Numbered from the stretch's first letter, positions 1,967 to 24,503 are shown. The stretch: DNA of 64,000 bases from an uncultured Planctomycetia bacterium (GCA_964629655.1 CAZVQU010000001.1:20788-84787), one strand, 5' to 3'. Program-made: numbers and translations. Notes: generated by a model from the sequence alone, not told the origin.

Positions 1967-3629
1967 CTTTCTGATTGCCTATGCCTAAGTAAGGATATTT
2001 CGTAAATAAAATCAAAATCCCGCCCTCGAAATATTTACGCCTACTTTCCTTGAAACCAACCCCCACTAGTCCATCAATGACTCCCTGACCGACTTGAGAA
2101 TAAATTAACCACAATCGCCTATTTTTTTCTAAATCTTTAATACCTTTAAACTCTGTGGGCAAAAAGGTAGATGGGTATAATCTTTCGTAGTCAAGTGTAT
2201 ACAAAGTCGAATCTTCGGCGGTAAAAATAACTGTGCCTCGATTAATCTCCTTAATCAAATCGGGATTATCGCTTACCTGATTTATGTAGAATTTTAAAGG
2301 AAATACTGTATGCTTACCTACATGCAAGATTCTATCGTTCTGGCGATAACCATCCGAAATAGCTTTAACGGTCTCTTTCACATTTTGCTTCTTCACTACT
2401 CCGATCCTGCTGTTATCTTCGGGCAAATGATTCAAATAATAATTTTTCAAGCCAAAACAATAAAAGCCTACTAAGATAAACATAAAAATAAACAAAAGTT
2501 TCTTGCTTAATCTTCCCAAGCCTGCCGCAATACCTAATAAGTATAATGGGAATATAGAAAAAAGGTATCTGTCTACATAAGAAGGCTGAATCTGCGATAT
2601 AAGAAATAGACTCATGATCGGAACGAACAGACAAGTCAAAAGCAATCTTCCGCCCATCCTTTTATAAAATTTAGAAACGCCAAGTGAAAACAGGAGAAAA
2701 CTAACGGCAGAAATCACCCTTCCTCCAAATGAGTAATAACTTATATTATAACCAATACTAAAGTTTTTAAATGTGTCCAATAGATGCCCCAAATTTGGTT
2801 TTCCTGCCCAGATAGGAAACTCACTCATTGCAGGATAAATTTTATTGTGGAAAACGAACTGTATATTGGGATAAAGGATTAAGAAGACAGGTGTGAGCAA
2901 AAATATAATGGTTGTATAAGCTAAGATAAACGGTTTTAGAGAACGTTTATAATTTTTTATATTAAAAACGAAGAAAAAACAAAAGGAAAATAATACCAAC
3001 AAACTCATATAGTGAAAATATATGTTTAGAATATTAGAGAAAATATAAATGAACCAATACCTCTTTTTGCCGGTATCTAACGCCTTAAGAAACGAATATA
3101 CAGCAAACATTGTAAGAAAGCATACAGCCGCATACGGCCGTAATTCCTGAGCATAATAGATATGGAAAGGTGAGATAGCTAGTAATAATACGGCCAATCC
3201 GGCAGTTTTAATATTAAAAATATATCTCCCTAACAGATACACACCGTAAATACTTAAGAGAGAGAATATAACTGAAGATATCCTTAAAGCGAACTCCGAT
3301 ACGCCAAATAACATTTTCCAATAATACACAAAGCCATGAGTATAAAGCATTAAATAATCATGATGAGTAAGCAAAAAATTGCCATCGAATAAGTTAGACA
3401 AAGGAAACAGCTGGCCCACACTTCGTGCATCGAGCATAGCGATTGCTTCATCATACCAAAAGCTATATCTACCAAGGTTATAGATCCTAAGAATCACAAC
3501 TGTCACTAAAATTAACCCTAAAATAATTATGTACCTTGAGTTAGAACAATTCTTCATGTCAAAATAATATTTTAATCTTTGTCTTATTGTCATTATAAAG
3601 TTAAAAAGTAATTTTAATTTTGTGTACAA
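1935..3629 (-). CDS. Polytopic membrane glycosyltransferase, GT-C fold (ArnT/PMT-like)
   Basis: 564 aa with more than 10 predicted TM helices in the N-terminal two-thirds, a YDEAIAMLDAR first-loop motif resembling ArnT/PMT_2 DE motifs, and a soluble C-terminal domain. Confidence 0.5.
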   Translation of the reverse strand: MYTKLKLLFNFIMTIRQRLKYYFDMKNCSNSRYIIILGLILVTVVILRIYNLGRYSFWYDEAIAMLDARSVGQLFPLSNLFDGNFLLTHHDYLMLYTHGFVYYWKMLFGVSEFALRISSVIFSLLSIYGVYLLGRYIFNIKTAGLAVLLLAISPFHIYYAQELRPYAAVCFLTMFAVYSFLKALDTGKKRYWFIYIFSNILNIYFHYMSLLVLFSFCFFFVFNIKNYKRSLKPFILAYTTIIFLLTPVFLILYPNIQFVFHNKIYPAMSEFPIWAGKPNLGHLLDTFKNFSIGYNISYYSFGGRVISAVSFLLFSLGVSKFYKRMGGRLLLTCLFVPIMSLFLISQIQPSYVDRYLFSIFPLYLLGIAAGLGRLSKKLLFIFMFILVGFYCFGLKNYYLNHLPEDNSRIGVVKKQNVKETVKAISDGYRQNDRILHVGKHTVFPLKFYINQVSDNPDLIKEINRGTVIFTAEDSTLYTLDYERLYPSTFLPTEFKGIKDLEKNRRLWLIYSQVGQGVIDGLVGVGFKESRRKYFEGGILILFTKYPYLGIGNQKDEANEKNHYF

Positions 3630-3703: not shown

Positions 3704-5440
3704 CTAAGAAAGGTTTTGCATCTTGCGTTTCTTCAACCTCACATATATAGTAACTACTAGGAAACATATGAGGATAACCGCACCAATGATAAAGGAACCC
3801 GGTAAATAATAAACCGTAACATCGTGGTCTTTTTTACTGACCGGAATACCTATAAGACCGTCATGATTGATAACTTTTCCAATCGAAGAGCGCCAGCCAG
3901 AAAAATAATTCTGGTTTATTATCAAGATGTCGTCTTGGTACACATTTAAATTGAATTTAAGCTTGTTGGGAGAGAAAAATAATTGCCGGGCTTCTCCAGA
4001 ATTACCTTCTAAAAAGTATTCACCTCTATAGTCTTTGCGTCCTTTCGGAATTACCTTTGTTTGAATTTGGTTGCTGAAAGAATCATACGCATACACAACT
4101 GCCTTATTATTATATATGGTTGCAAACATCTTCTTAGCATCCCCGTCTGTCTGAAAGAATTCCTTCGTTTGATTGCCAAATTTATATTCTATAATTGGTC
4201 TCTCTTTAAATATTTTACCAGCACAATTAAAAGCATTAAAAGAAATTAAAAAAAGTATGACAAAAATTACAAATTTCGATATTTTTTTATGCACGGTTCT
4301 CGCTTCAAGCTCCTTTAGTGTTAACCCTACAGATAATGCATATATCGAAAGTAAAAGTATAAAAAATTTATGTGGCTCCTTAAATTGAGGAAGGAAATAA
4401 CGTAATATTCTAAAGATATTGAAGGGACTGTTGTCTCCTAAAGCCAAAAAAAGAAAAATAACGCTTATTATTACCAATATCTTATTCTTCTTCCATAGCA
4501 AAAAATGGCTCAAAATCAATATTAAAATTGCAATAAGTGAAAAATTGTATCCGAAAATGCCTGCTTTTTCTGATGTAAGAAATAAATACATATTGTCTCC
4601 AGAAAAGAAAAAATATTTTAATACCAGCAGGCCAGACTTAATATTATCGATATTAAAAAATCCTGAAAAAGAAGCTAATTCTATATGACGCGGATATTGA
4701 CTTAACAATTCTATCATCGGTAAGAGCTTTGGAATTGCAAAAAGTATTGCGAGGAAAAATGCGCCTAACAAAGATAAAATGTATCCTGGTTTCTTTTTGG
4801 CAAATGAAAAATAAATTGTTTCTATAGATAAAACCATAAAACTCATAACAAAAAGATATGTACTTCCGGCATAAATGGTCCAGCTTAAAATAATTGCCAA
4901 AAGAAAAAGATTTCCCTTTCGTTCTATGCTCTTTTTAAAAAGTCGGTATATCCAGGGAAATAAACAAATACTTAGAAGTGGAAAGCTGCCCACAAAAGTA
5001 ACTATATTAAAAATATTCAGAAAAAAGACTGAATTTAATAAACTTAATATACGGCTCAGCCGGTAGTACCGTGATAAAAAATACATTCCTGTTAAGCCTG
5101 CAAATACTTGCAAGAAATAAGCACACACGGTTCCTGAAATACTGCCCAAAATCAAAATCGGCAGAAAGAAAGGACTTAAAAAATTGGAATTAGGGTGGGC
5201 TAGCCAGGGTTCTCCGCCGCAGACATACGGATTCCAAAGAGGAAACTGCTGATACTCTAGGATAGTCTTTCTCTGTAACTCATGGTAGGTAAAATACTTA
5301 TCCCAGTCACATCTGTCGACTGGCTGAAATCCAGAGAAAACAACTATCCACCAAAGCAGAACAATAGCAAAAATAAGAAAAATAAAAAATAGATCTTTTT
5401 TAGAAAAAATTGTTGTAGCCCTCATATGTCGCATTGTCAT
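3704..5440 (-). CDS. Polytopic integral membrane protein of unknown function (possibly GT-C/YfhO-like)
   Basis: 578 aa with many hydrophobic helices, then a C-terminal soluble segment and a final TM helix; no recognisable catalytic motif. Confidence 0.4.
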   Translation of the reverse strand: MTMRHMRATTIFSKKDLFFIFLIFAIVLLWWIVVFSGFQPVDRCDWDKYFTYHELQRKTILEYQQFPLWNPYVCGGEPWLAHPNSNFLSPFFLPILILGSISGTVCAYFLQVFAGLTGMYFLSRYYRLSRILSLLNSVFFLNIFNIVTFVGSFPLLSICLFPWIYRLFKKSIERKGNLFLLAIILSWTIYAGSTYLFVMSFMVLSIETIYFSFAKKKPGYILSLLGAFFLAILFAIPKLLPMIELLSQYPRHIELASFSGFFNIDNIKSGLLVLKYFFFSGDNMYLFLTSEKAGIFGYNFSLIAILILILSHFLLWKKNKILVIISVIFLFLALGDNSPFNIFRILRYFLPQFKEPHKFFILLLSIYALSVGLTLKELEARTVHKKISKFVIFVILFLISFNAFNCAGKIFKERPIIEYKFGNQTKEFFQTDGDAKKMFATIYNNKAVVYAYDSFSNQIQTKVIPKGRKDYRGEYFLEGNSGEARQLFFSPNKLKFNLNVYQDDILIINQNYFSGWRSSIGKVINHDGLIGIPVSKKDHDVTVYYLPGSFIIGAVILICFLVVTIYVRLKKRKMQNLS

Positions 5441-8029: not shown

Positions 8030-8761
8030 TCAGAATTCAGCAAAGTCTCCGATGTTTTTTCCTTCAATCATCCCACCTGTAAGTTCTATCTCTGTATAAA
8101 TTTTGCTGACTGCTCCGCCGTATTCTGTAATCTCCTCGTTTTCCTTAACTTTACCTACACCTTGGGCAAGCCAAGTTGTTGTTATCACAACCATTGAAGA
8201 TCCCTTAATCTTGAGGAAAGAAAATATTACTAAACAATCTTCAAACCTTCCAGCAGGAACAGTTACGTCTTCAAACCCTTGAAATTTAATTTCGGCTGTA
8301 GCCATTCCTCTATCGACTATATTACCATCAGTATCGTAAACTACGAATGCTCTTGAGTCTTTAAATCCTTGATTCAATTGCAAATTATCAGGAAAAGCTA
8401 TTGCCGGCTGGGAGAATACGATATCCCCACCGTCTTTCGCAACTTTATGTAAGTAAATCCCCTCTTCTCCCAAGCTGTAATAGAAAATGGGGTTTCTGTC
8501 CCTGTCTCGTGTTTTGTCCATTTCTCTCTCAAGAAGATACACTTCCTTACCGTTAAGCAAATCCTTAGTTCGAATGACACTATGTATAATATGTCCAGAA
8601 GGCTTGCCCCGTCCTGTCTCAGATAGTGTATACCTCCATTCATTGCCGATTCCTATAGGAAAGTATTTTGATATTTCATAAGAATCCTCTGCTTTTAACA
8701 GCGGTTGAATTAGACAAATGGAAATACAAACTGCAAGAATGCTTAAAGCTATTTTTTTCAT
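8030..8761 (-). CDS. Secreted protein of unknown function (beta-domain family A, copy 1)
   Basis: 243 aa with signal peptide MKKIALSILAVCISICLIQPLLKA. Paralogous to 10949..11677 and to the C-terminal domain of 16921..19161 (shared YxISxYFP, PIFYYSL, VTVPAGRFEDCL, WLAQGVGKVK motifs). Confidence 0.5.
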   Translation of the reverse strand: MKKIALSILAVCISICLIQPLLKAEDSYEISKYFPIGIGNEWRYTLSETGRGKPSGHIIHSVIRTKDLLNGKEVYLLEREMDKTRDRDRNPIFYYSLGEEGIYLHKVAKDGGDIVFSQPAIAFPDNLQLNQGFKDSRAFVVYDTDGNIVDRGMATAEIKFQGFEDVTVPAGRFEDCLVIFSFLKIKGSSMVVITTTWLAQGVGKVKENEEITEYGGAVSKIYTEIELTGGMIEGKNIGDFAEF

Positions 8762-8780
8762 CGTCTACCTCCTCGTTTTT

Positions 8781-9257
8781 TCATGCTTGCGCACTTTTCT
8801 TCTTCTGTAATTCATCTATTCCCAACATCCAGGCAAGAAAAAGCATAGTCAGCCCCAAATTCAATACGAAGATGAATGGCGCAGACGTATTGTATTTACT
8901 TATATGTGCCCCTTCCAGCGCTCCAAGCTGAGACAACCGCGGATCACGGGGATTATAAAGAACTAAGGCTCTCTTACCCTCATTTAGCCGGCGGAAATCA
9001 GCATGGCCTAGCTTCTCCTGGATTGTATATTTTTGCCCTCGGGCATCTTTAAATTCATACCGAATGTATCGAGATGTAAAAATAGTGTTCTTCTCTGAAT
9101 CATCAATATCTTTCTCTAAAATTGTTGCAATAGCAATCTTGCTATTCCTTTCGAATTTGCGGTACTCTTTTACATCTTTGTAGTAAGAGAATATTGGCTT
9201 AGCTGCTATAATGATAAAGACTAAACCAACGGCCTGTATGGTAATAAATACCTTCAT
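8781..9257 (-). CDS. Small two-TM membrane protein (DUF3592-like architecture)
   Basis: 158 aa: N-terminal TM, a charged beta-rich middle region, C-terminal TM. Confidence 0.3.
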   Translation of the reverse strand: MKVFITIQAVGLVFIIIAAKPIFSYYKDVKEYRKFERNSKIAIATILEKDIDDSEKNTIFTSRYIRYEFKDARGQKYTIQEKLGHADFRRLNEGKRALVLYNPRDPRLSQLGALEGAHISKYNTSAPFIFVLNLGLTMLFLAWMLGIDELQKKKSAQA

Positions 9258-10930
9258 TGTCCACCTTGGCTAAATAAAAAAACATCAATTTTATTACCCT
9301 GCCAAGTAGACTCTAATTTTAAATTATCCTGTAAAAAATCTCTATACCTATGTAGCGATTCGATATTCAGATGAGGAACGCCAAAATAATCTTCCCAGGG
9401 AATAATTATCCAGAGCCTATTGCGGAATAATTTCCCTTGCGCCACATCCGTAGGCGATACTGCGTCAAAGTACCGTTCTGAATCAAAAATCCCTTTCGCA
9501 TTTACAGTTACAGGGTCATCTATTAACTCGGCTGGAAAGCCGACAAAGTCATTTTCCCTGAAATCTTTCTTGATATAGCGTAAAGCCTCCTTGTAAGCAG
9601 GATTTGTACGACTGAAAGTCATCTCATTTGTAAGATAAATATTCCATATTAATATTAGGAAAAAACAAGTATAACCTATTATTTTCCCAAATAAACTCCG
9701 CGATCTACTTAATAAAAATATGCCATAGCTATACACCATAGCAATAAAAGGAATTGCCCATGTAAAATGCCTGACATTAAAATACAACCTAGATGTTGCA
9801 TACCAAAAACACAGAAAGGAATGTATGCCGAATAACAAAGCTGAAAATAATATACTTACTACGAAGATGTAAAAGGGCGGCTCTCGATCTCGTAATTTAA
9901 GAATAATATAGGAATACAGAAGAACGAACAGATAACCAAATAGACCTGTTAAAGGTAACCCCCAGACCAATTTTATAATCCGGTCAATAATTAAAGGCCC
10001 ACTTTCTTGGCTCAGATAGAAACTATTGCCCCAGACGCCCTGAAATATGAACCCGCTAAAGATTGCCGAATACATAACAGGGCTCCATAGGATAATAAAA
10101 AAATTAAAAATAACTAGAGCTTTTATAAAATGTGAGAATGAAGACAGAAAAGAATGACCTGTACGGTATTTTCCCCACTTAGCTATAAAAATCGTCAACA
10201 ATTGCGAAAAAATAACTACAAGAGTAAAATAGTGAGTAAAAAAGCACAGTATGCTAACCAGACAATATTTCCATATCTTTTTTTCCTCCTGAGAAATAAA
10301 TGTCTGCCAAAAGTAATAGTAGCTTAATAATGCCAAAAAACAAAATAACGCATACGGTTCTGTTCTTCTGGAATAAAATGCAAAAAGGCTATGGACGTTG
10401 AGAAAGATAAAGCTTAGATAGGATATTAATTTATTATTAAATACTTTGAGAGAAAAATGGAAGGTTAAACAAGCGGTGCAAATACCAAAAAAGACAGAGA
10501 TGAACCTTAAAAAGAAATTATAATATTCGGGATTTAGCAGCCTCATCGGGATATTTAATATAAAGAGATATAAGGGTTGGCGGGATTGCACAACCATATT
10601 GTCAAGCAACGAGAAAATATTTACCTGGAGTTCTTGCGCGATACGTATATTCAGGGATTCCATAAGGTCAAAACTATTACTCCCTAAATATATTATCTTC
10701 CAAATTATAAATATAGAAGTTAATACAAAAAGCAACCTGATGTCCCTGCGGGACAATTTGTTACTTTGCTGGCTTACTTTGAGTGGGCAGACTTTGCTTT
10801 TTTTAAATTGTTTATTTGCATAAATGAATATTCCTATATTTGAAATGAATAAAAAAACAAGCAAAATCCAATAATTACAATAGTAGCTTAACGCGTTGCG
10901 TAAACCAAAATAATTTTCAATATCGTTCAT
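9254..10930 (-). CDS. Polytopic membrane protein, GT-C-like
   Basis: 558 aa with more than 10 TM helices and a C-terminal soluble domain of about 130 aa; flanked by the two secreted family-A paralogs. Confidence 0.4.
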   Translation of the reverse strand: MNDIENYFGLRNALSYYCNYWILLVFLFISNIGIFIYANKQFKKSKVCPLKVSQQSNKLSRRDIRLLFVLTSIFIIWKIIYLGSNSFDLMESLNIRIAQELQVNIFSLLDNMVVQSRQPLYLFILNIPMRLLNPEYYNFFLRFISVFFGICTACLTFHFSLKVFNNKLISYLSFIFLNVHSLFAFYSRRTEPYALFCFLALLSYYYFWQTFISQEEKKIWKYCLVSILCFFTHYFTLVVIFSQLLTIFIAKWGKYRTGHSFLSSFSHFIKALVIFNFFIILWSPVMYSAIFSGFIFQGVWGNSFYLSQESGPLIIDRIIKLVWGLPLTGLFGYLFVLLYSYIILKLRDREPPFYIFVVSILFSALLFGIHSFLCFWYATSRLYFNVRHFTWAIPFIAMVYSYGIFLLSRSRSLFGKIIGYTCFFLILIWNIYLTNEMTFSRTNPAYKEALRYIKKDFRENDFVGFPAELIDDPVTVNAKGIFDSERYFDAVSPTDVAQGKLFRNRLWIIIPWEDYFGVPHLNIESLHRYRDFLQDNLKLESTWQGNKIDVFLFSQGGQ

Positions 10931-10948
10931 AGCGATATAAAATTATAA

Positions 10949-11677
10949 TTAATCCTTACCCCTAACCTTTTTAGTTGTTGCTTTTTTAAGTTCTTTCTCA
11001 TTATAAACTTTGTGGTATCTCCCTTCTCTATACCTAATGAGTTCTTCTTTTACTTTAACTTTGCCTATTCCATGAGCAAACCAAGCTGTTTCTTTAACAA
11101 TTAGAGTATCTCTGGATGTTGAAAATACCCATAAAAAATCAATTTTTAAGCATTTATCGAATTTTCCCGCTGGGACAACCACATCTTCAACACCCTTAAG
11201 TTTAGCCTTTGTCTCAACTGTTCCTGCATCTATTAACTTATTCTTGGCTGTGTAAACTTGTATCGATGCAGAAACACTATGTTCCCGATTCGATTGTAAG
11301 CCGTTAGGGAAAAAAAGTAGCGGAGGGGAAAATACAAGATATCTGTTCTCTTCTACCATTTGATCTAAACTGATTCCTGAATTACTAAGACTATAGTAAA
11401 AAATCGGTTTTTTATTTCGGTCGGGTTCATAAAGATACATTTCTTTTTTACCTAGCAACTTCCTAGACTTAATGCAGCTTAGGGAGTCAACAGAGTCTGT
11501 CTTTGCTTCCTGGGAAAATCCCTCTTCAACCACATACCCTTGATATGCCCAGCTATTTCCTACAATTAGCGGGAAATATTCTGATATATCATAAGGCGCT
11601 TGCGCATTTAAATATACATTGCTTAAAAGAATAATAACGCAACTAAAAAGAATGGTTAAAGTTAATCTTTTTACCAT
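10949..11677 (-). CDS. Secreted protein of unknown function (beta-domain family A, copy 2)
   Basis: 242 aa with a signal peptide and the same motifs as the 8030..8761 product (YDISEYFPLIVGNSW, PIFYYSLSNSG, VVVPAGKFDKCL, WFAHGIGKVKVKEE). Confidence 0.5.
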   Translation of the reverse strand: MVKRLTLTILFSCVIILLSNVYLNAQAPYDISEYFPLIVGNSWAYQGYVVEEGFSQEAKTDSVDSLSCIKSRKLLGKKEMYLYEPDRNKKPIFYYSLSNSGISLDQMVEENRYLVFSPPLLFFPNGLQSNREHSVSASIQVYTAKNKLIDAGTVETKAKLKGVEDVVVPAGKFDKCLKIDFLWVFSTSRDTLIVKETAWFAHGIGKVKVKEELIRYREGRYHKVYNEKELKKATTKKVRGKD

Positions 11678-12471
11678 TACTCATCTCCCTTTTCTCTTAA
11701 TAAAACCATCGCCGCTCCAATAGCTGCAGTAAATTGTGGATATTGCAATATCTTTATATCTCTCATAAATTCTTCTGTTAATGAATACAAAAGCCCTTTA
11801 TTTTGCGCGGGCCCTCCGTCTAAATAGATCTCTTCTTCAACATCTAAACTTCGCATTAAATCGGATAGCCTTCTTGCTATAGACTGATGCAATCCGGTTA
11901 TAATGTCACCTTTATTTACTTTTGCATACAAAAGGGATACTATCTCGCTTTCAACAAAAACAACGCATGTGCTATTAATGGTAACTTTTGACTGGCCTAT
12001 ATTTCCTAAATTTCCCAAATCAGAAACAGAAACACTTAATATATGCGCCGCTTTTTCCAAAAATCTGCCGGTCCCGGCTGCGCATTTGTCGTTCATTTTA
12101 AAATCCACAATTTTACCATCAGAAGAGATCTTAATAACTTTAATATCTTGCCCTCCTACATTGACAACTGTCCTTGCTGTTCCATTACTTAAATGATAAG
12201 CCCCCACGCCGATTGCTGTAATTTCGTCTACAACTCTCTCTCTATCGGGAAAAATACGTTTACCGTAACCAGTAGTAGCCACTCCTAAAATTTTTTCCTT
12301 TGACAAAGAGAGTTCTCCTAACCCCTTCATTAAAAGATTCTTTGATACCTTAGTGCTTTCAAAGGTAGCAGGAGCAACTTTTGACCAAAGCAATCTTCTC
12401 TTTTCATCAATAAAAACAACTTTAATTGCGGCTGTGCCCAAATCAACTCCTGCAGCTACCATTTCCCTCAC
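11677..12471 (-). CDS. BadF/BadG/BcrA/BcrD-type ATPase; HgdC/YjiL-like CoA-substrate-specific enzyme activase
   Basis: 264 aa: AGVDLGTAAIKVV actin-like ATPase N-terminus and the CAAGTGRFLE motif characteristic of [4Fe-4S]-bridged dehydratase activases. Confidence 0.8.
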   Translation of the reverse strand: MREMVAAGVDLGTAAIKVVFIDEKRRLLWSKVAPATFESTKVSKNLLMKGLGELSLSKEKILGVATTGYGKRIFPDRERVVDEITAIGVGAYHLSNGTARTVVNVGGQDIKVIKISSDGKIVDFKMNDKCAAGTGRFLEKAAHILSVSVSDLGNLGNIGQSKVTINSTCVVFVESEIVSLLYAKVNKGDIITGLHQSIARRLSDLMRSLDVEEEIYLDGGPAQNKGLLYSLTEEFMRDIKILQYPQFTAAIGAAMVLLREKGDE

Positions 12472-12482
12472 CCACCTTTTTA

Positions 12483-13709
12483 TTAAAGTGTTTCTTTAAA
12501 CGCCTCTAGCCTTGCTAAAATATTTTCCCTGTCTTCTTTCGAATAGTCTGTCTCAATTTTTATAAAACGAAAACCTTTTTCTTTTATTATCTTCTCATAG
12601 CTAAAGCTTTCTATATCGAACGGGTGGCAGCCTTTAAAAACATGGTAAACCACTCCTTTTATATCCTGTTCCTGCATTATTTCCAAAATGTTCTTCGCTC
12701 TATGTTCATTTTCAATAAACGTAGGGCAAGTACAGCTAAGTTGATATCTCTCTGCGATTGCTCTAAGAAGCTCATACTCTGAAGTATCATCATAAACTAC
12801 GCTGCCAAAAAGTCTCTCCGAAGTACACAAATCATCAGCGGCAATAAACATACCCACTTCCTCAATCAGCTCAGAAATCTTTAACTGAGGAAAGAATAAA
12901 GGCGAACCAAGAAGAAATATTCGAGGCTTTGTATTGCAACATAAATTATTATAGGCGCTACAGAATTCGTTTATCTTTTTTGTCCATGCCCCTGCATCAT
13001 CGAGCATAAAGGCATTGGCCAGAATTATGCTTTCTGTTCCAGAAATCAAGCCCTTACGCCTCATTTCAAGTAATTTTTCAAAGGCTTCCCAAGCTAACAT
13101 ATATTTATGGATTGAATTTAACAACTTTCTCTTATCAAGTCGCCTATTGGCACGTCTCTCTAAATATCGCTTTAATTCATATGTTTCTTCCAGCCATCTT
13201 TTCTGACTCTTTTGCGCTTCTTTAACATGAGGTAGCTCCATTATGTAAAAGTTGTAGTTTTCTTTACCCACCATCCCTGGCAGTTTAACTCTCCAGTCGC
13301 AAGATGTCGGAGTAATTAGCATCTCACATAACCCTTCTAATGATTGCTCACAATGAAACGCGCTTAAGGCAGACTTAATAAGAGGGCACGCCAAAACCGG
13401 CAAAGAAGATGATGAAAGCTTCTGTATAGCTAATGATCCACAGCACAATCGTATAGGGTGGAAACCTAGGGCATCGAGTAATTCCACTGGTACTGTATTG
13501 CAATATGTACCAACCACAGGTCTATCGAATCTTTCTTTTAATCTTTGAGGATAAGCAGCGAGTGAAAGGGTGTCAAGAAAATATTCAAATTCCTTAGAAA
13601 AAGTGCCTTTCTCTTTAAAAAAAACAATCTCTCGATTATACTCCTCAGCCATTTCCCTTTTAACCCGCTCTTGCATCCTTCGATTTAAATCACCGGGTAA
13701 ATTTAACAT
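12483..13709 (-). CDS. 2-hydroxyacyl-CoA dehydratase family protein (HgdB/YjiM-like, HGD-D)
   Basis: 408 aa with a C-terminal GVVYHVFKGCHPFDIESF region typical of the HGD-D family. AAGGAGA RBS 13 nt upstream of the ATG. Confidence 0.65.
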   Translation of the reverse strand: MLNLPGDLNRRMQERVKREMAEEYNREIVFFKEKGTFSKEFEYFLDTLSLAAYPQRLKERFDRPVVGTYCNTVPVELLDALGFHPIRLCCGSLAIQKLSSSSLPVLACPLIKSALSAFHCEQSLEGLCEMLITPTSCDWRVKLPGMVGKENYNFYIMELPHVKEAQKSQKRWLEETYELKRYLERRANRRLDKRKLLNSIHKYMLAWEAFEKLLEMRRKGLISGTESIILANAFMLDDAGAWTKKINEFCSAYNNLCCNTKPRIFLLGSPLFFPQLKISELIEEVGMFIAADDLCTSERLFGSVVYDDTSEYELLRAIAERYQLSCTCPTFIENEHRAKNILEIMQEQDIKGVVYHVFKGCHPFDIESFSYEKIIKEKGFRFIKIETDYSKEDRENILARLEAFKETL

Positions 13710-13760
13710 TGCTACTTATTTCTCCTTTTAAACCATTCAAAAAAATATTTTTGTGAATAC
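13692..13760. repeat. 68-bp duplicated leader element, copy 1 (RBS plus first 6 codons of the hgdB-like gene and about 50 bp upstream)
   Basis: About 96% identical to 15043..15112; on the minus strand it contains the AAGGAGA RBS and ATGTTAAATTTACCCGGT. Confidence 0.8.
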
Positions 13761-13777
13761 CTTAATACAAACATTCT

Positions 13778-14938
13778 TTATTCCGCTAAATGATAGTTCT
13801 TTCCAAGATACTCGGCTAAGTATTCTCCAATAACTCGATGGCTGAATTCATTTAAGTGAGTATCTATTTCAAAAAATAATGAATTAAAACTCGAAGCTCG
13901 ATCTAAAATAGTAACTAAATCTAGATGGGAAATATTCAGAGTGTGGCAGAAATTAACAATATATTCCTCTAACTCCTTCTTGCTATATTCCACCACTAAA
14001 AGTGGTACTTTGTGGCTATCACAAAGCTCTTTATATTGTTTAAGGAGAAGGAATATTAATTTCTGGAAATATTTTTTTTTATATTTTTTTCGCTCTTGCA
14101 CTATAGACTGCTGTTTCTCGGAAATACCCTTCCACCGTTCCTTATCTCTTTCTTCCAAGCTCATCTTGACCCTCTTATGAAATATACTATAATTCAATAG
14201 AGACAATAACCTGCTTTTTCCAAAAATAGCCCCTTTGGCCCATTTGCCTGCGTTTTTTAGAGATACTTTAAGTGCATCATTATTTTTTTGGCTACCCAAT
14301 GCATCTTTAACAAAATCTACATCTTGCAATATGAGCTTAGTTTCATCTTCGTTAAGAACAAATCTCGGTTTGAATGCACCCCAGGGAGTTATAAAATCGC
14401 TGCTTCGCTCAAGAAAATAATCAGATACAAATAATACGACTAAATCTGGATTATATCTAAATCCATCTTTTTTTAGCTGCAATAGTGACTGGCCAATCCC
14501 GAATCCCGAAATTCCCATATTTACCACTTCTACATGTTCCAAAGATTGCTCGATTATGTCCGTAAAGCGCTGGCCATAATTTATACCCCACCCAAGCACA
14601 GTGGATTCACCTAAGGCAATTATCCTGAATTCTTGGGCAGGCTTCTGGAAAGGAATCTCTTTATCTCTTATACCTTGAGAATTTATAGAATAAACAACAT
14701 CGAAATCTGAAGTAATAACGCGGTCTTTCACATAAGGCTTTAATTTCCACCCCAGGTATTTATCAAACCTTGGTGCGCTATGGTAATGTCTCAACATAGA
14801 TTCCATATATTCTATTTTTTCATCTAATTTCGTTCTCTTTATGTATCTATCAGCGGCTACTTCTGCAATTACAGCACCTATAAATAATCCTGCGATTACA
14901 AGGAGTACCTTACGGAAAGATTGTTTTGCCTTCACCAC
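13778..14938 (-). CDS. Membrane-anchored SGNH/GDSL-family hydrolase (second copy)
   Basis: 386 aa with an N-terminal TM helix, IIALGESTVLGWG block I and DTHLNEFSH block V. Confidence 0.5.
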   Translation of the reverse strand: MVKAKQSFRKVLLVIAGLFIGAVIAEVAADRYIKRTKLDEKIEYMESMLRHYHSAPRFDKYLGWKLKPYVKDRVITSDFDVVYSINSQGIRDKEIPFQKPAQEFRIIALGESTVLGWGINYGQRFTDIIEQSLEHVEVVNMGISGFGIGQSLLQLKKDGFRYNPDLVVLFVSDYFLERSSDFITPWGAFKPRFVLNEDETKLILQDVDFVKDALGSQKNNDALKVSLKNAGKWAKGAIFGKSRLLSLLNYSIFHKRVKMSLEERDKERWKGISEKQQSIVQERKKYKKKYFQKLIFLLLKQYKELCDSHKVPLLVVEYSKKELEEYIVNFCHTLNISHLDLVTILDRASSFNSLFFEIDTHLNEFSHRVIGEYLAEYLGKNYHLAE

Positions 14939-15042
14939 TATGCACCCATATCGATTTTTTTAAAATACAATAGTAAAACACTGTTAAGCAAATAATAAAA
15001 CCCTTCTTTCTTAACCTTTTTCTGTATTTTTCTTTTCATTCT

Positions 15043-15112
15043 ACCGGGTAAATTTAACATTGCTACTTATTTCTCTTTTTAAACCATTCAAAAAAATATT
15101 TTTTTGAAGAGG
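15043..15112. repeat. 68-bp duplicated leader element, copy 2 (overlaps the 3' end of the polyferredoxin CDS, upstream of the SGNH gene)
   Basis: Same sequence with one substitution (RBS becomes AAGAGA) and a poly-T length change; it supplies the last 13 codons of 15063..16043. Confidence 0.8.
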
Positions 15113-16043
15113 AAAAGATGTTTTTTCTCAAAAATTTAAGAGACAGCGTTTTATTTTGGGAGCATGCCTCTATACATTTTAGACAAAGAATGCAACCGTC
15201 TTCAGTGACATTGTCTTTTTTTTTCTCTAAATAAACTTCTTTTATATCCATTGGGCACACCCGCCAACAATTCCCACAACTTGTGCAAGAGTTTATTTTC
15301 TTCTTAAGTTGTAAGAAGCTTGCCTTGTTGAATACATCAATAAGAACGCCGACTGGACATAAGATACAAAAAAAGCGTTCTCGAAAAACTATTCCTACAA
15401 AAACTGCTCCTGCAATAACCGATGTAGCTATGCTTGTCCAAAATCTCCCTAAACCAACAGTAAAATCGACTCCTATATTCAAAGGATTCCCCTCAAACAA
15501 AGGAAGAAATGTCTTGACAGGGCATATACGGCAATAAATCGGGTCGAGTTCTCTAACTCCACATGCCAAAAGCACATAAATACTTAGGAAGCTTAAAAGT
15601 AGTACATATTTAAGAATGTTTAGGCCACTTTTTGTTTTCTCGGAAAATTGTGTTTCCCTTACAGAGAGCTTCTTTCTTGCAAAAGTGACTCCATCTTGAA
15701 GTGTTCCAAACGGACATATCCATCCGCACCAAATTTTATTGAAAATAAGAACCACTAAAAAGAAACCTAAAAACAAACGCAAATATGCCCCTGCCCATCC
15801 CCACATAACGGTGTATCCGGGAAAAGGCAGCATCCCTCTCTCCTCCTCCTGAGGATCCATCCTTATCCCATATTGAGAGCGCTGCAAAGGCAATAAATAG
15901 CAGCCACTGCCATGATAACTGTCATTATTAAGACATTGAGTGCCGGGCAAAAAATTATTAAATCGCAAGCCAATATAGCCTCCGTAGATTAAAAGCAGAA
16001 AACATAAAATTTGAATTAGGTAACGAAATCTATAAACTTTCAT
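15063..16043 (-). CDS. Membrane-bound polyferredoxin, NapH/MauN/CcoG-like 4Fe-4S binding protein
   Basis: 326 aa with TM helices plus CGWICPFG, CRICPV, CILCPVG motifs and two ferredoxin motifs (CTSCGNCWRVCP; CILCLKCIEAC). Confidence 0.65.
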   Translation of the reverse strand: MKVYRFRYLIQILCFLLLIYGGYIGLRFNNFLPGTQCLNNDSYHGSGCYLLPLQRSQYGIRMDPQEEERGMLPFPGYTVMWGWAGAYLRLFLGFFLVVLIFNKIWCGWICPFGTLQDGVTFARKKLSVRETQFSEKTKSGLNILKYVLLLSFLSIYVLLACGVRELDPIYCRICPVKTFLPLFEGNPLNIGVDFTVGLGRFWTSIATSVIAGAVFVGIVFRERFFCILCPVGVLIDVFNKASFLQLKKKINSCTSCGNCWRVCPMDIKEVYLEKKKDNVTEDGCILCLKCIEACSQNKTLSLKFLRKNIFSSSKKYFFEWFKKRNK

Positions 16044-16924
16044 TATAACTTAAATCTCTTTCTTGTTACGATGGCAACGAGGGATACGATAACCAGCGAA
16101 GACATAAAAATGCTAACACCTAATCTTAAGTTTATGTCTCTACCCCTTGTTGCAATATGTTCTGAGTGTTTAAATGAAATAGTATAAGAACCTTTAAAAA
16201 TGGAGTCGCCTAAAACACGTTCAACTATGATTAAATCCTGTCTCCGTTCCTTATCTCCCTGTGGAATATAAGAAAAACTATCCACTACGCCCGTCTCTAC
16301 TTGTTGGTTTTTTCCGTTATCGCCGATTATATTTATATTTTTACAATCGAAAGGGATTTTATCAAAATTTACCGAGAACCCTATTGGATAACCTAATCTT
16401 CGGTAAAAAGTATTATCCTCCTTTGCTCGTTCCCTGTGAATATTTATTTCCAATTGCCTTTTAAAAGGGTTATTTAAAGTATTTCCCTTTGCATTATTCA
16501 AGATTGAGTCGTTGCCAAGAATAAAGAAAGACGTCTTAGCAAGATAATTATACTCTAATCCCCGCTCTGATTTAGCCATCTTTACCAAGACAGCACACCA
16601 GCGTTCCCTATCTGAATTAACTCTAATGCGGGCCCTTTTCTCTCCTTTTACAATATTTAATTTGTAAAAAATATCTTCTCCTCTTTTATTTTTTTCTCCA
16701 AAAGTATAAGCGGCTTCAATATTATCTAATCCCTCAATGCTTTTCTTTCTATCGGGGAATTGTCCATAACAAACAAAGAGATGTTGTGTCGCCATATCAC
16801 TTTTATTCCCTGCCTCATCATCATACTCTAGCCAAATGTAATCGTCCTTAGAAAAATCGGCATAGGCTATGCTGGCACTTAAATAGAGAGGTAAAACTAT
16901 GAAAATAAATAAAATATTTTTCAT
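16043..16924 (-). CDS. Exported protein with C-terminal membrane anchor, unknown function
   Basis: 293 aa with an N-terminal signal peptide and a C-terminal hydrophobic helix followed by RKRFKL. Confidence 0.4.
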   Translation of the reverse strand: MKNILFIFIVLPLYLSASIAYADFSKDDYIWLEYDDEAGNKSDMATQHLFVCYGQFPDRKKSIEGLDNIEAAYTFGEKNKRGEDIFYKLNIVKGEKRARIRVNSDRERWCAVLVKMAKSERGLEYNYLAKTSFFILGNDSILNNAKGNTLNNPFKRQLEINIHRERAKEDNTFYRRLGYPIGFSVNFDKIPFDCKNINIIGDNGKNQQVETGVVDSFSYIPQGDKERRQDLIIVERVLGDSIFKGSYTISFKHSEHIATRGRDINLRLGVSIFMSSLVIVSLVAIVTRKRFKL

Positions 16925-19161
16925 TTTTTAGCAACTATTTCTTTGAGTTCGAGAACCTCAACAAAAGAATTATTGTAACGATTCATAATATTTTTTTCTT
17001 CAGGTATCATATATTCTGTATTCATAAAAGGAATATGTGTGTGGATAGTCTTAACATGGCCTATTTTTGCAGCAATCCAAAAATTATAAATATGCATAAG
17101 CTTACCCTTCCCAAGCTCATCTTTATAAACATGCCTTGCTAAGAAATGAAGACATTTGAATTTTCCTGCCTCAACAGTTATTTCTTCTTTACCTATAAAT
17201 GAAATTTCTGCCTCTATTTTTTCCTTACCAATAAGTTTGCCGTCGTAATCAAAAATCGATTGAATAGTAGAAAATGTAATGTCTTCTTTAAGTTTCGAGG
17301 GTATTAACAAAAGTGGTGGGGAAAACTCTCTAATTACTTTTAACGGGACTTCTCCTACCAGATGCTTATTTCTGTAAAACATTACTCCTTGAGAAGTTAG
17401 TTTTCTTGTCTGGATTCTATCGTTATATTCCCCCTGGAAGAGCAAGTCGAATTGTTTTCCGGATTCCATTTGCTGAACATTCTTGATACTTACGGTTACT
17501 ATATTGCTTCTGTTATCCTCAAGATGACTATATACATATTCAACATCTTCATCCAAAGGAAAATATTCAAAAACAGAGTAGGCATCTTTTGACATTGACC
17601 CCTCTATGAAATGTAATGCTTCTTCGTTTCCATTTTGTGTATAGTCTTTTTTCAACAATAGCCACCCGTCTTCAAAGGCAACAACGCCATAGCTATCCTG
17701 TATTATAGCATGTTTTAATTTCGAATAATACTTTGTTTCGCTTAAATTGTAATAAGAATGAGTATATAAATCGACAAATATGTAATCCCATTCGTAGTAT
17801 TTCTCTATAACATGTTTATCAAATAGCCCAAAATACTTGCACCTGCCTAAATGCGGTACCAAAAATTCTGGAGCTAGACAACTTGCCTGATCAGGAATCA
17901 TTTTTAGAAACTTATGCCCAATCCGGGCATGTTTAGTTAACTTATAATCTTTGAAACTAAAGCCCTGGGTAAATGGTAAAGGCCCTAAGTTTTCAGAAAA
18001 ATTACTTTTTGGCTGAACATAGTAATGCTGAAGCAAGACTGGGACCAAGATAAACGTGGCTAATAGATTATGAAGTAACTTTCTGCTATTTTTATATTTA
18101 AAAAAAGCTTTATCTATAAAATCGATAATCCTTCCCGCCCCATATATGGCACCTGCAAAGACAAAAGCCAAGATTAAGAAATGTCCTGAGGAATGTTGGT
18201 TTCTAAGGAGAATATAGCCCGCCTCGGCAATAACTGGTAGAAGATACAGAGGGCTAAAGAAAACAAAGATATTAGGCAAACGAGAAAAAATGTAAATTAA
18301 CATATTGCCCTCATTGAACATATTCTTCATAATCAATATGGGATGGAACAAGGCATATCGCAAAGCATCAATTAGGCTATCTCCATACTGTACAAAATGG
18401 ACCATGCCTACCGGAAAAGGCCTGTTAATTAGCTTAAGGTAAACAGAACATGCGGTTATTGCAATTATCAACCAGATAAGGCTAATTTTTAATATCGCTT
18501 TTCCGTATCTTTTTCTCTCTTTAGAAAAAAGAAGAATTATACCTAAAACTAGAGTCATCAGCACAGCATCAATTTTAGATAGATTGGCCAAAATAATAAA
18601 AATAATGAATTTCTTAAAATCTCCCTTTTCGAGATAATAAAAAGCGAACAAGAGAAATGGTAAAGCTAAAGCAAGGGGTATGTATCCAAGCACTGCGCCT
18701 GTGGTTACGATTGGATGCAACAAATATGCAAGAGAGAATGTAACTGCCAGATAAGCACTATCCAGGCGTTTTTTTGTAAGTAGATACACGGGTAAAGCCC
18801 CGCTTGCTAAAAAAACGCTCTGAAAAACAAGCAATGCCTCCGGCCGGGGAAAAAGCCTATAAATAAAGGCAAGGAGGTAATTGAGGGGACTGGAGAAAAT
18901 AAGTACAGCACTATACTCCGGCAATCTAAGAACATCAAAAGGACTAACTCCTGCAGCCAATTTTGGGTATATATGTGTATATGCCCAGCCAAAGCTAGTT
19001 TGAGAAAAACTTCCAAATTTAAAAATATTAATAAGAGAAAAAAATATGATAAATATCCCAGAAGCTATAAGCACTATAGCTAATCCGAAATTACCTATTT
19101 TTTTATGATGGCTTGAAATAACCATGCTGAAGCGCAGTAATATCTTCTTACCTATTCTCAA
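16921..19161 (-). CDS. Polytopic membrane protein (paralog A) fused to a C-terminal secreted family-A beta-domain
   Basis: 746 aa. Residues from about 92 to 507 are encoded by a 1248-bp block 100% identical to one in 22914..24503. The C-terminal part carries ITVEAGKFKCLHF and WIAAKIGHVK, the motifs of secreted family A. Confidence 0.5.
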   Translation of the reverse strand: MRIGKKILLRFSMVISSHHKKIGNFGLAIVLIASGIFIIFFSLINIFKFGSFSQTSFGWAYTHIYPKLAAGVSPFDVLRLPEYSAVLIFSSPLNYLLAFIYRLFPRPEALLVFQSVFLASGALPVYLLTKKRLDSAYLAVTFSLAYLLHPIVTTGAVLGYIPLALALPFLLFAFYYLEKGDFKKFIIFIILANLSKIDAVLMTLVLGIILLFSKERKRYGKAILKISLIWLIIAITACSVYLKLINRPFPVGMVHFVQYGDSLIDALRYALFHPILIMKNMFNEGNMLIYIFSRLPNIFVFFSPLYLLPVIAEAGYILLRNQHSSGHFLILAFVFAGAIYGAGRIIDFIDKAFFKYKNSRKLLHNLLATFILVPVLLQHYYVQPKSNFSENLGPLPFTQGFSFKDYKLTKHARIGHKFLKMIPDQASCLAPEFLVPHLGRCKYFGLFDKHVIEKYYEWDYIFVDLYTHSYYNLSETKYYSKLKHAIIQDSYGVVAFEDGWLLLKKDYTQNGNEEALHFIEGSMSKDAYSVFEYFPLDEDVEYVYSHLEDNRSNIVTVSIKNVQQMESGKQFDLLFQGEYNDRIQTRKLTSQGVMFYRNKHLVGEVPLKVIREFSPPLLLIPSKLKEDITFSTIQSIFDYDGKLIGKEKIEAEISFIGKEEITVEAGKFKCLHFLARHVYKDELGKGKLMHIYNFWIAAKIGHVKTIHTHIPFMNTEYMIPEEKNIMNRYNNSFVEVLELKEIVAKK
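17641..18888. repeat. 1248-bp perfect direct repeat, copy A (inside CDS 16921..19161)
   Basis: 100% identical to 22971..24218 (offset 5330 bp) in every line compared; flanks diverge abruptly. Confidence 0.9.
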
Positions 19162-22913: not shown

Positions 22914-24503
22914 TTATCCATCCAGCAATTTCTCTATACAACTTAGCACTTCTGTATTTTTTTCTTTCGCATAGTCTTTTTTCAACAATAGCCACCCGTC
23001 TTCAAAGGCAACAACGCCATAGCTATCCTGTATTATAGCATGTTTTAATTTCGAATAATACTTTGTTTCGCTTAAATTGTAATAAGAATGAGTATATAAA
23101 TCGACAAATATGTAATCCCATTCGTAGTATTTCTCTATAACATGTTTATCAAATAGCCCAAAATACTTGCACCTGCCTAAATGCGGTACCAAAAATTCTG
23201 GAGCTAGACAACTTGCCTGATCAGGAATCATTTTTAGAAACTTATGCCCAATCCGGGCATGTTTAGTTAACTTATAATCTTTGAAACTAAAGCCCTGGGT
23301 AAATGGTAAAGGCCCTAAGTTTTCAGAAAAATTACTTTTTGGCTGAACATAGTAATGCTGAAGCAAGACTGGGACCAAGATAAACGTGGCTAATAGATTA
23401 TGAAGTAACTTTCTGCTATTTTTATATTTAAAAAAAGCTTTATCTATAAAATCGATAATCCTTCCCGCCCCATATATGGCACCTGCAAAGACAAAAGCCA
23501 AGATTAAGAAATGTCCTGAGGAATGTTGGTTTCTAAGGAGAATATAGCCCGCCTCGGCAATAACTGGTAGAAGATACAGAGGGCTAAAGAAAACAAAGAT
23601 ATTAGGCAAACGAGAAAAAATGTAAATTAACATATTGCCCTCATTGAACATATTCTTCATAATCAATATGGGATGGAACAAGGCATATCGCAAAGCATCA
23701 ATTAGGCTATCTCCATACTGTACAAAATGGACCATGCCTACCGGAAAAGGCCTGTTAATTAGCTTAAGGTAAACAGAACATGCGGTTATTGCAATTATCA
23801 ACCAGATAAGGCTAATTTTTAATATCGCTTTTCCGTATCTTTTTCTCTCTTTAGAAAAAAGAAGAATTATACCTAAAACTAGAGTCATCAGCACAGCATC
23901 AATTTTAGATAGATTGGCCAAAATAATAAAAATAATGAATTTCTTAAAATCTCCCTTTTCGAGATAATAAAAAGCGAACAAGAGAAATGGTAAAGCTAAA
24001 GCAAGGGGTATGTATCCAAGCACTGCGCCTGTGGTTACGATTGGATGCAACAAATATGCAAGAGAGAATGTAACTGCCAGATAAGCACTATCCAGGCGTT
24101 TTTTTGTAAGTAGATACACGGGTAAAGCCCCGCTTGCTAAAAAAACGCTCTGAAAAACAAGCAATGCCTCCGGCCGGGGAAAAAGCCTATAAATAAAGGC
24201 AAGGAGGTAATTGAGGGGGGCAAAGAAATGAGAAACAGCTGGATATTCCGGCAGTATATACATTTCAGAAAAACTTCTAAATTCGGTTATCTTTAGATAC
24301 GCGTATGGATATGAATATCCAAAAGAATTAGCAGAAAAACTTCTAAATTTAAAAATATTGACAAAACCGAATGAAACAACAAAAATTGTAATCGCCATTA
24401 GAATAAAAATCAATAAATAATCTCTATTCCTATAACGGATTATACTGTTTATTCTGGAATCGGCTGGATGCTTAGATTCAGATTTTCCACACATTCCAAT
24501 CAT
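22914..24503 (-). CDS. Polytopic membrane protein (paralog B)
   Basis: 529 aa sharing the 1248-bp identical block with 16921..19161; the N- and C-termini are diverged. Confidence 0.5.
   Translation of the reverse strand: MIGMCGKSESKHPADSRINSIIRYRNRDYLLIFILMAITIFVVSFGFVNIFKFRSFSANSFGYSYPYAYLKITEFRSFSEMYILPEYPAVSHFFAPLNYLLAFIYRLFPRPEALLVFQSVFLASGALPVYLLTKKRLDSAYLAVTFSLAYLLHPIVTTGAVLGYIPLALALPFLLFAFYYLEKGDFKKFIIFIILANLSKIDAVLMTLVLGIILLFSKERKRYGKAILKISLIWLIIAITACSVYLKLINRPFPVGMVHFVQYGDSLIDALRYALFHPILIMKNMFNEGNMLIYIFSRLPNIFVFFSPLYLLPVIAEAGYILLRNQHSSGHFLILAFVFAGAIYGAGRIIDFIDKAFFKYKNSRKLLHNLLATFILVPVLLQHYYVQPKSNFSENLGPLPFTQGFSFKDYKLTKHARIGHKFLKMIPDQASCLAPEFLVPHLGRCKYFGLFDKHVIEKYYEWDYIFVDLYTHSYYNLSETKYYSKLKHAIIQDSYGVVAFEDGWLLLKKDYAKEKNTEVLSCIEKLLDG
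22971..24218. repeat. 1248-bp perfect direct repeat, copy B (inside CDS 22914..24503)
   Basis: See copy A. Confidence 0.9.

Follow-up and report, generated by a model that had tools for sequence, protein, structure and literature searches.

What does a secreted beta-domain do beside polytopic membrane proteins and, in one case, fused to one? The question is raised by positions 8,030 to 19,161 of a 64,000-nt stretch of DNA from an uncultured Planctomycetia bacterium (hereafter the window, meaning the whole stretch), where such a domain is encoded three times. An earlier note on this DNA had taken the fusion as a Rosetta-stone link, that is, as a sign that the domain works physically with the membrane proteins. 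We found that the membrane part of the fused protein belongs to family DUF2079, and that ten related loci encode the same two modules as overlapping or adjoining genes. DUF2079 and the fused kind of barrel, called type A below, therefore almost certainly work as a pair. All three copies of the domain lie on the minus strand, within an unbroken minus-strand gene run, as follows.

8030..8761, minus strand: copy C, stand-alone secreted DUF3108-like protein of subfamily II, 243 aa (PF21347, 41 bits)
10949..11677, minus strand: copy B, stand-alone secreted DUF3108-like protein of subfamily II, 242 aa (PF21347, 36.2 bits)
16924..17592, minus strand: fused DUF3108-like barrel of subfamily I (type A), residues ~524-746 of the fused protein (family profile, E 2.6e-103)
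17593..17640, minus strand: fusion linker, residues 508-523, TQNGNEEALHFIEGSM, placed by alignment to the split relatives
17641..19161, minus strand: DUF2079/GT-C-fold membrane module, residues 1-507 of the fused protein (PF09852, 143.2 bits)

The 8030-8761 and 10949-11677 products are paralogs that align end to end by BLASTP (94/248 identical, 38%, E 2e-50). Both also align to the C-terminal ~220 aa of the 746-aa protein encoded at 16921-19161, over residues ~524-717; the two E values are 5e-13 (26% identity) and 2e-10 (29% identity). The similarity among the three copies is thus confirmed to be far beyond chance, and a hidden Markov model (HMM) of the family, a check which the earlier note had proposed, recovered exactly these three in the window at E<1e-3. 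Both stand-alone copies begin with a hydrophobic signal segment and an A-x-A-like site, as read from the sequence (LLKA/ED and LNA/QA, the slash marking the site). The motifs Y-x-IS-x-YFP, V-x-VPAG[RK]F[ED]xCL and W[LF]AxG[VI]GKVK were seen in alignment A1, where PIFYYSL is restricted to the two stand-alone copies among the three. Hence the earlier note was right about the number and positions of the copies, about the signal-bearing paralogs with their motifs, and about the same domain forming the C-terminus of the membrane protein at 16921..19161.

Fused and separate forms of the pair

Twenty-eight close DUF2079 relatives, 43-90% identical to the window protein, were listed. Only P0027 (734 aa, 83% identity) among them carries a fusion like that of the window, and the others are 466-553 aa long. 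In ten loci, representing eight lineages (<90% identity), a ~515-aa DUF2079 gene is directly followed by a ~250-aa stand-alone type A gene (L004/L005, L006, L007, L008, the P0012 contig, L011/L027, L021, L022, L024 and L026). The stop and start of the two genes overlap by 4-23 nt or leave a gap of <=3 nt, and both modules are 43-83% identical to the window protein. Fusion thus occurs in two lineages (the window; P0027/L001), and the modules stand apart in two others (L003, L009). The cluster of L003 carries a stand-alone type A gene in the exact slot of the fused domain and is otherwise collinear with the window; in L009 type A comes after three tandem GT39-like paralogs, detached from DUF2079. 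Relatives with a source name are mostly metagenome-assembled genomes (MAGs) of Candidatus Omnitrophica/Omnitrophota.

The earlier note had advised checking whether homologous membrane proteins elsewhere are fused to the domain or adjacent to it, and both were found, the fusion in P0027 and adjacency in the ten loci. Its reading of the fusion as linkage therefore stands as far as a real functional link is concerned. It had also, however, connected the window's stand-alone copies with the fusion and grouped the polytopic proteins together, and these parts need correction. The split counterparts of the fusion are found in other genomes, and the fused polytopic protein, being a DUF2079 protein, is of a different family from the product of the 9254 gene. 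As the fused and the stand-alone copies of the window fall into different subfamilies, the stand-alone genes are therefore not a split form of the fusion.

The junction can be read against the split forms. The unfused DUF2079 protein P0036 ends in NSEVLNYMNGVLLDEKKI followed by the stop codon, the stand-alone partner P0014 begins with MKKRFSILIFVILAASVGFWYFSMSQKKYSLSEYFPL, and the fusion reads NEEALHFIEGSMSKDAYSVFEYFPL. The linker keeps the C-terminal tail of the unfused DUF2079 (compare NSEVLNYMNGVL in P0036), joined to SMSKDAYSVFEYFPL. The deletion at the junction took out ~29 residues, namely DUF2079 tail, the stop codon and a signal segment of ~22 residues that the stand-alone form carries. 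The residues SMS are kept; they follow the hydrophobic signal segment in P0014, and the equivalent residues vary in other partners. For topological reasons, such a deletion requires that the C-terminus of DUF2079 already lies outside the cytoplasm. In solved GT-C enzymes the C-terminus is indeed outside the cytoplasm, and the model of the fused protein, with about nine membrane helices following a positively charged N-terminus, fits an extracytoplasmic C-terminus of the DUF2079 module.

An assembly artefact behind the fusion, or behind a 1248-bp repeat described below, was considered and rejected, because the fusion recurs in the 83%-identical P0027 from other assemblies and that genome has its own, shorter conversion tract. 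Likewise, a 686-aa protein of L004 was rejected as a second GT-C-barrel fusion, as it has a weak PMT_2 match and no DUF3108-like match.

The barrel fold and the membrane module

Copies C (41 bits) and B (36.2 bits) pass the PF21347 (DUF3108-like) gathering cut-off of 27 bits in the Pfam HMM scan. The fused domain scores 20.7 bits, below this cut-off, and is linked to the family through the family HMM and its pairwise matches to the stand-alone copies; most stand-alone relatives in subfamily I carry a precomputed PF21347 match. NCBIfam gave no match for any of the eight proteins scanned. By sequence, a profile of 25 family members matches the PDB entries 4FVS (E 1.9e-7) and 3FZX (E 1.5e-3). Structure prediction, another check advised by the earlier note, agreed with this. 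The AlphaFold2 (AF2) model of the 8030 product is all-beta with 13 strands (pLDDT 88.5, pTM 0.82), and its best Foldseek matches in the PDB are 4FVS (E 1e-7), 3FZX (E 1e-6) and 2IN5 (E 1.5e-3), the first two with probability 1.0 and a target-normalised template-modelling (TM) score of 0.49-0.53. In the model of the fused protein the barrel has 12 strands over residues 540-744 and matches 4FVS (E 3.4e-6) and 3FZX (E 2.8e-4), and the C-terminal part also matches 2IN5. All three structures are soluble exported or lipoprotein barrels; 3FZX is described as a 'YmcC-like fold', and 2IN5 is E. coli YmcC/GfcB.

The domain is thus a known curated family, namely a soluble exported YmcC-like beta-barrel of the DUF3108-like family PF21347. 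This bears out the secreted all-beta family of the earlier note, which had also said that a match to a well-known family would speak against its proposal. Such a match exists in part: the family is curated and has solved structures (4FVS, 3FZX), but it is without known function.

Alignment A2, with 25 sequences, divides the family cleanly into two subfamilies. Subfamily I, or type A, comprises the fused domain and most database matches, and is marked by the motifs YFPLNEND, GKYNDRIQ and NFWIAPGVG and by a C-terminal PExKxIMNRY extension. Its invariant polar residues in alignment A9 are H546, R582, R611, E659, H690, K704, H707, K723, N727 and R728. Subfamily II takes in the 8030 and 10949 copies.

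When 1.84 billion representatives were searched exhaustively with the HMM, 4,954 proteins matched at E<=1e-3, of which 509 reached E<=1e-10; the 4,954 are cluster representatives at 50% identity. They are mostly stand-alone proteins of ~230-250 aa. The ten multidomain members examined are surface proteins, in which SLH, Big_9/cadherin/dockerin, TSP_3 or TIG/FGE-sulfatase domains accompany the family domain. Some multidomain members have two to seven matched stretches, the highest count being in a listed protein outside the Pfam scan. None of the ten multidomain members checked showed a further GT-C-barrel fusion. Distant DUF3108-like genes, 24-25% identical to the 10949 copy, also occur in MAGs of Ignavibacteriaceae and Zixibacteria. 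A 321-325-aa protein is encoded 2-6 kb downstream of each of them (L013:9830-13580, L014:9830-17481, L015:1308-5029), and these proteins resemble part of the 1146-aa ABC ATPase of the window (49315-52755).

As to the membrane module, the fused protein was modelled on alignment A7 (unpaired rows, window fragments as anchors), which gave a full-length model with pLDDT 89 and pTM 0.70. The linker forms a helix at 512-524, and the block 521-530 has a mean pLDDT of 70. Foldseek matched the membrane part at probability 1.0 to STT3 (7OCI, 8AGE), ALG12, ArnT (5F15), PglB (6GXC), DPY19, ALG9 and AftA, with TM scores of 0.33-0.44. A PDB sequence search returned no match for the fused protein and none for the 558-aa protein at 9254. 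By its PF09852 score the fused membrane part is a DUF2079 module, and by this model it has a GT-C glycosyltransferase fold.

The 746-aa open reading frame at 16921-19161 has a TTG start and a 4-nt overlap with the upstream U32 gene. The ortholog P0027 aligns from an ATG at residue 13 (nt 19125), and judging by this alignment the true start of the fused protein is probably that ATG, giving 734 aa.

The window also encodes a second, unfused DUF2079 protein, and both pass the PF09852 cut-off of 28.2 bits.

22914..24503, minus strand: unfused DUF2079 paralog, 529 aa, without barrel domain (PF09852, 149.5 bits)
22971..24218 (= 17641-18888), no strand: identical 1248-bp block, 100%, a gene-conversion tract between the DUF2079 paralogs (self-BLASTN)

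This paralog is 90% identical to the fused protein and fully identical over about residues 91-507 of it. The 1248-bp identity ends exactly where the DUF2079 module ends; the N-terminal ~90 codons have diverged, and the paralogs lie 5.3 kb apart. In the sister genome, P0027 and its paralog P0030 are likewise identical over a stretch, though a shorter one (residues 79-199), and it therefore seems that DUF2079 paralogs undergo gene conversion repeatedly. Owing to the 1248-bp identity, the fused 746-aa protein is hidden under an unfused representative in a protein database clustered at 90%.

Distant and close DUF2079 proteins differ in several motifs. An FDLGxxDQ motif (full form FDLGxxDQAxW) follows the first transmembrane segment (TM1) in 3/4 distant DUF2079 proteins examined. 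The close lineage has FSxTxFG[WY] or a variant in its place, with an 8-residue deletion; GYIP replaces DFH, and mostly KID replaces KEE.

Neighbouring genes

The region from ~0.85 to 54.8 kb of the window is one envelope-glycan super-cluster according to Pfam scans. Five of the encoded proteins are GT-C-like and polytopic, and at least 13 of the genes are of the radical SAM type. The others include GT1/GT2 enzymes, an exporter of the ABC-2 type, a polysaccharide deacetylase, a Glf-like flavoprotein, two U32 proteins, a dehydratase-like HGD-D protein together with its activator, and a Fer4_5 membrane protein. The genes nearest to the barrel copies are listed here.

3704..5440, minus strand: 578-aa polytopic protein (ortholog in L003 55% identical by BLASTP)
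8781..9257, minus strand: 158-aa DUF3592 small membrane protein (PF12158, 27.1 bits), its gene sharing 4 nt with the end of the 558-aa gene
9254..10930, minus strand: 558-aa polytopic GT39/PMT_2-like (GT-C) protein between copies B and C (BLASTP to PMT_2 paralog)
16043..16924, minus strand: 293-aa secreted protein with a C-terminal membrane anchor, downstream of type A (no Pfam match)

The earlier note had called the 9254 gene GT-C-like, and this assignment was borne out. Its product has no Pfam family at E<=0.1, and it matches the PMT_2 paralog at 1935-3629 over the PMT_2 region by BLASTP (E 5e-7 to 3e-8). The ortholog P0205 (80% identical) is named 'glycosyltransferase family 39' by NCBI, and the homolog P0208 (42% identical) carries PF13231. 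The two stand-alone barrel genes do flank this gene as the earlier note had it, with the DUF3592 gene at 8781-9257 intervening on the 8030 side.

Copy B lies directly upstream of the 558-aa gene in the window, with an 18-nt gap, and the same order is seen in L016, where a 309-aa protein is the positional ortholog; in L003 the positional ortholog of copy B is 14613-15332 (181 bits). The order 558-aa gene, DUF3592 (158 aa), copy C is kept in the window, L001/L002, L018 and L019, and the copy C ortholog P0005 (64% identity) occupies the same position in L001/L002. A clear DUF3108-like gene also lies upstream of the L003 ortholog of 3704-5440, with a weak 201-aa match downstream (23 bits, below the PF21347 cut-off; family HMM E 3e-10). 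The encoded 574-aa protein of L003 had been a candidate ortholog of the 9254 gene product, which was rejected because BLASTP identified it as the ortholog of the window's 3704-5440. The association of subfamily II with GT-C-like genes is thus real but looser than that of type A with DUF2079. In L009:3391-10684, from a MAG labelled Planctomycetales, three tandem paralogs that are 28-34% identical to the 9254-10930 product precede the type A gene, and no DUF2079 lies within 10 kb of it. Since DUF2079 is not near the L009 type A gene, the barrel may have switched GT-C partners.

Downstream of type A, proteins of 293-310 aa, matched by position and size only, are encoded directly or one gene away in L001, L003, L004, L006 and L007, and the L012 counterpart of the 293-aa protein is 32% identical. 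The order type A, 293-aa protein, Fer4_5 is kept in L001, L003, L006, L007 and L012. P0006, a stand-alone type A protein of 292 aa, has a C-terminal extension of ~40 residues which ends in a membrane anchor and resembles the C-terminal anchor of the 293-aa protein; P0006 is possibly another deletion-fusion.

Further along, a 66-bp direct repeat (97% identity; 13692-13757 and 15043-15108) lies on either side of the SGNH gene at 13778-14938 and contains the last codons and stop of Fer4_5 and the first codons of HGD-D. Because Fer4_5 is directly followed by HGD-D in L001, L003 and L004, it seems that the SGNH gene was inserted here and the junction duplicated in the process. The density of radical SAM genes at ~20333-49325 is extraordinary. 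Nine or more carry B12-binding domains and several carry SPASM domains, and a 1299-aa protein at 43039-46938 has three radical SAM-SPASM units. They are interleaved with the two U32 genes, the HGD-D/BcrAD pair and the Fer4_5 membrane protein gene.

Role of the barrel and comparison with known systems

The best explanation, to which we give an even chance, is that the type A barrel is a periplasmic partner which handles the substrate/acceptor or the product of the DUF2079 GT-C enzyme. It would be a dedicated 1:1 partner of the DUF2079 protein. The ancestral state would be separate, translationally coupled genes, with the DUF2079 stop overlapping the start of a ~250-aa signal-bearing protein; in the window lineage, deletion of the stop codon and the signal segment would have left the barrel attached to the C-terminal periplasmic domain of DUF2079. 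The subfamily II proteins (8030, 10949), which are encoded beside other GT-C-like enzymes of the cluster, would be free periplasmic proteins. These GT-C proteins would modify an exported envelope glycan or glycolipid at the outer face of the inner membrane, with lipid-linked sugar donors, and the barrel beside the periplasmic domain would hold or hand over the acceptor or product, like the appended carbohydrate-binding domains of other GT-C enzymes. The analysis shows the homology, the fold, the location outside the cytoplasm and the pattern of fused and adjoining genes; from these we infer physical contact in a 1:1 complex, the ligand and any effect on chain length. The polymer-binding or chain-length module put forward in the earlier note is a conjecture, as the data suit glycan binding, lipid binding and pure scaffolding alike. 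The tandem barrel copies of the surface proteins resemble binding modules and were counted in favour. The handling of acceptor or product is suggested by analogy with EmbC, whose C-terminal domain is a lectin-like carbohydrate-binding module (PMC3044687).

Several points weigh against this explanation. Contact, ligand and activity are all putative, and at a pTM of 0.70 the placement of the two domains relative to each other in the fused model is uncertain. The site of FDLGxxDQ, in the first extracytoplasmic loop, is the position of the catalytic Asp/Glu in GT-C enzymes. DLGxxDQ is absent from the window's fused protein and from all 28 close relatives listed (P0027-P0054); as this acidic motif is missing, transferase activity in the lineage is only putative. 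The weaker fold matches of the 8030 model are lipid or small-molecule barrels (LolA superfamily, lipocalins, EPDR1), so that a hydrophobic ligand is as compatible as a glycan. Among characterised proteins of related fold the nearest is GfcB/YmcC, whose only known role is that of a protein-protein adaptor (PMC8592465). Moreover, the subfamily II gene does not adjoin a polytopic gene in L004, L007, L008 and L017, and its loose adjacency could be partly incidental in a cluster dense in GT-C genes.

If the ligand is hydrophobic, the barrel might be a LolA/LptA-like carrier. The GT-C protein would load it with its lipid-linked product, either a glycolipid or an intermediate linked to a polyprenyl, and the barrel would pass this across the periplasm, the soluble subfamily II proteins being shuttles and the tethered type A a loading site. 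The closed barrel fold agrees with such a role, as do the cleavable-looking signal peptides and lack of an anchor in subfamily II, and the many radical SAM, U32 and HGD-D/BcrAD genes could build an unusual lipid or lipid-linked product. Secondary Foldseek matches include the LolA-superfamily entry 3BUU, lipocalin-type amine binders, Rv2717c and EPDR1, and for the fused model P. gingivalis LolB, but these lipid-barrel matches are weak (E 0.02-0.75, TM 0.2-0.3), the strong matches 4FVS, 3FZX and 2IN5 have no known lipid ligand, and tandem copies in SLH/cadherin surface proteins suit adhesion or glycan binding better. We regard the carrier role as unlikely, though credible. The barrel could instead be a pure adaptor or structural subunit like GfcB/YmcC, which binds no substrate and stabilises the GT-C periplasmic domain or docks the next component, for which two products of downstream genes, the anchored 293-aa protein and the Fer4_5 membrane protein, are candidates. 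GfcB (2IN5) shares the fold, and it forms a ~100 nM complex with GfcC and also binds GfcD (PMC8592465); the conserved order of type A, 293-aa protein and Fer4_5 fits as well. The invariant polar residues of subfamily I, however, suggest a specific small-ligand or active site rather than an interface alone, and GfcB is a lipoprotein in a GfcC/GfcD context, neither of which features is found here. This makes a mere adaptor rather unlikely.

The same residues lead to a further possibility. Because the DUF2079 lineage is without FDLGxxDQ and subfamily I is dense in invariant His, Arg, Glu, Lys and Asn, the barrel may contribute to chemistry. It would then form a two-component (or fused) periplasmic enzyme with DUF2079 and supply catalytic or phosphate/sugar-binding residues, or it would itself be an enzyme acting on a product of the radical-SAM-rich pathway. 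To our knowledge there is no case of a two-component GT-C/barrel enzyme among GT-C proteins or YmcC-like barrels, and we consider this quite improbable. Finally, the copies might be outer-membrane beta-barrels, functionally unrelated to the neighbouring inner-membrane proteins, as DUF3108 was suggested in passing to be an outer-membrane barrel (PMC4364669). In its favour, the 8030 product ends in Phe, and Foldseek gave weak matches to OmpU, to intimin/invasin barrels and to designed transmembrane barrels. Against it, a C-terminal aromatic signal is missing from the 10949 and type A proteins, the structures that match best are crystal structures of soluble proteins, and the strand number of the model is odd (13). 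For the fused copy this was rejected on topology, as a tether of ~16-30 residues to an inner-membrane protein excludes it from the outer membrane. Functional independence is also at odds with the conserved DUF2079 overlap in ten loci, and the idea is hardly tenable overall.

Families, folds and GT-C enzymes with appended binding domains are already known; what appears to be unreported is that DUF2079 has a YmcC-like barrel for a partner, whether fused or coupled. The full-text literature search returned no paper on DUF2079, with PF09852 occurring only in unrelated bioinformatics work; DUF3108 is mentioned in passing, and those of the papers naming it that were read assign it no function. The radical SAM and glycosyltransferase passages of a recent Omnitrophota genome survey hold nothing on a DUF2079-barrel link and no 'DUF' term. 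DUF2079 and DUF3108-like are sizeable families, and the fused-versus-overlapping pattern gives each its first specific partner. The periplasmic-partner explanation would also extend the theme that GT-C enzymes recruit extracytoplasmic beta-domains for substrate handling, here with a new fold and possibly as a separate subunit. The analysis also points to an unusual envelope cluster of Omnitrophota type, which combines the five GT-C-like proteins with the radical SAM genes, at least 13 in number. As the organisms are uncultured and the function is inferred, practical reach is limited.

Among known systems, the long DUF2079 proteins of other phyla (P0055-P0058, 669-726 aa) share PF09852 and the GT-C core with its C-terminal periplasmic alpha/beta domain, and likewise have an extra C-terminal domain of ~170 aa. 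That extra domain is unrelated in sequence to the barrel. DLGxx[DN]Q after TM1 is retained in P0055, P0057 and P0058, and KEE in P0055-P0057, whereas the window lineage is without DLGxxDQ. EmbC-type GT-C enzymes also have a GT-C membrane core followed by an extracytoplasmic beta-rich module in one chain (PMC3044687). The EmbC module is a lectin/carbohydrate-binding sandwich; here it is a YmcC-like closed barrel, a separate polypeptide in most relatives, whose carbohydrate binding is putative.

GfcB/YmcC (YjbF-family, E. coli group 4 capsule, 2IN5) has the same barrel fold (Foldseek E 1.5e-3, probability 1.0) and no detectable sequence similarity to the window barrels. It is likewise extracytoplasmic, is encoded with overlapping reading frames in a surface-polysaccharide operon and acts by binding its neighbours' products (PMC8592465). 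GfcB is, however, an outer-membrane lipoprotein that pairs with GfcC and GfcD, whereas the partner in the window is an inner-membrane GT-C protein. Pfam scans of most open reading frames >=120 aa at 851-54820 showed no GfcC or GfcD/YjbH family. When the N-termini were read by eye, with no predictor, the 8030 and 10949 products showed no canonical lipobox and had A-x-A-type sites instead; in most type A proteins the signal segment contains no Cys (e.g. P0007, P0013, P0014), and where a Cys is present no lipobox surrounds it.

The closest relatives are the PF21347 DUF3108-like and PF11306 DUF3108 proteins of known structure (BDI_3050, 4FVS; BF2203, 3FZX), which are of the same sequence family and fold, have ~210-250 aa and carry an N-terminal export signal. 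They are stand-alone Bacteroidota lipoproteins or exported proteins without assigned partner or function. Unlike them, subfamily I is fused or translationally coupled to a GT-C protein, and it has the PExKxIMNRY extension and extra invariant polar residues.

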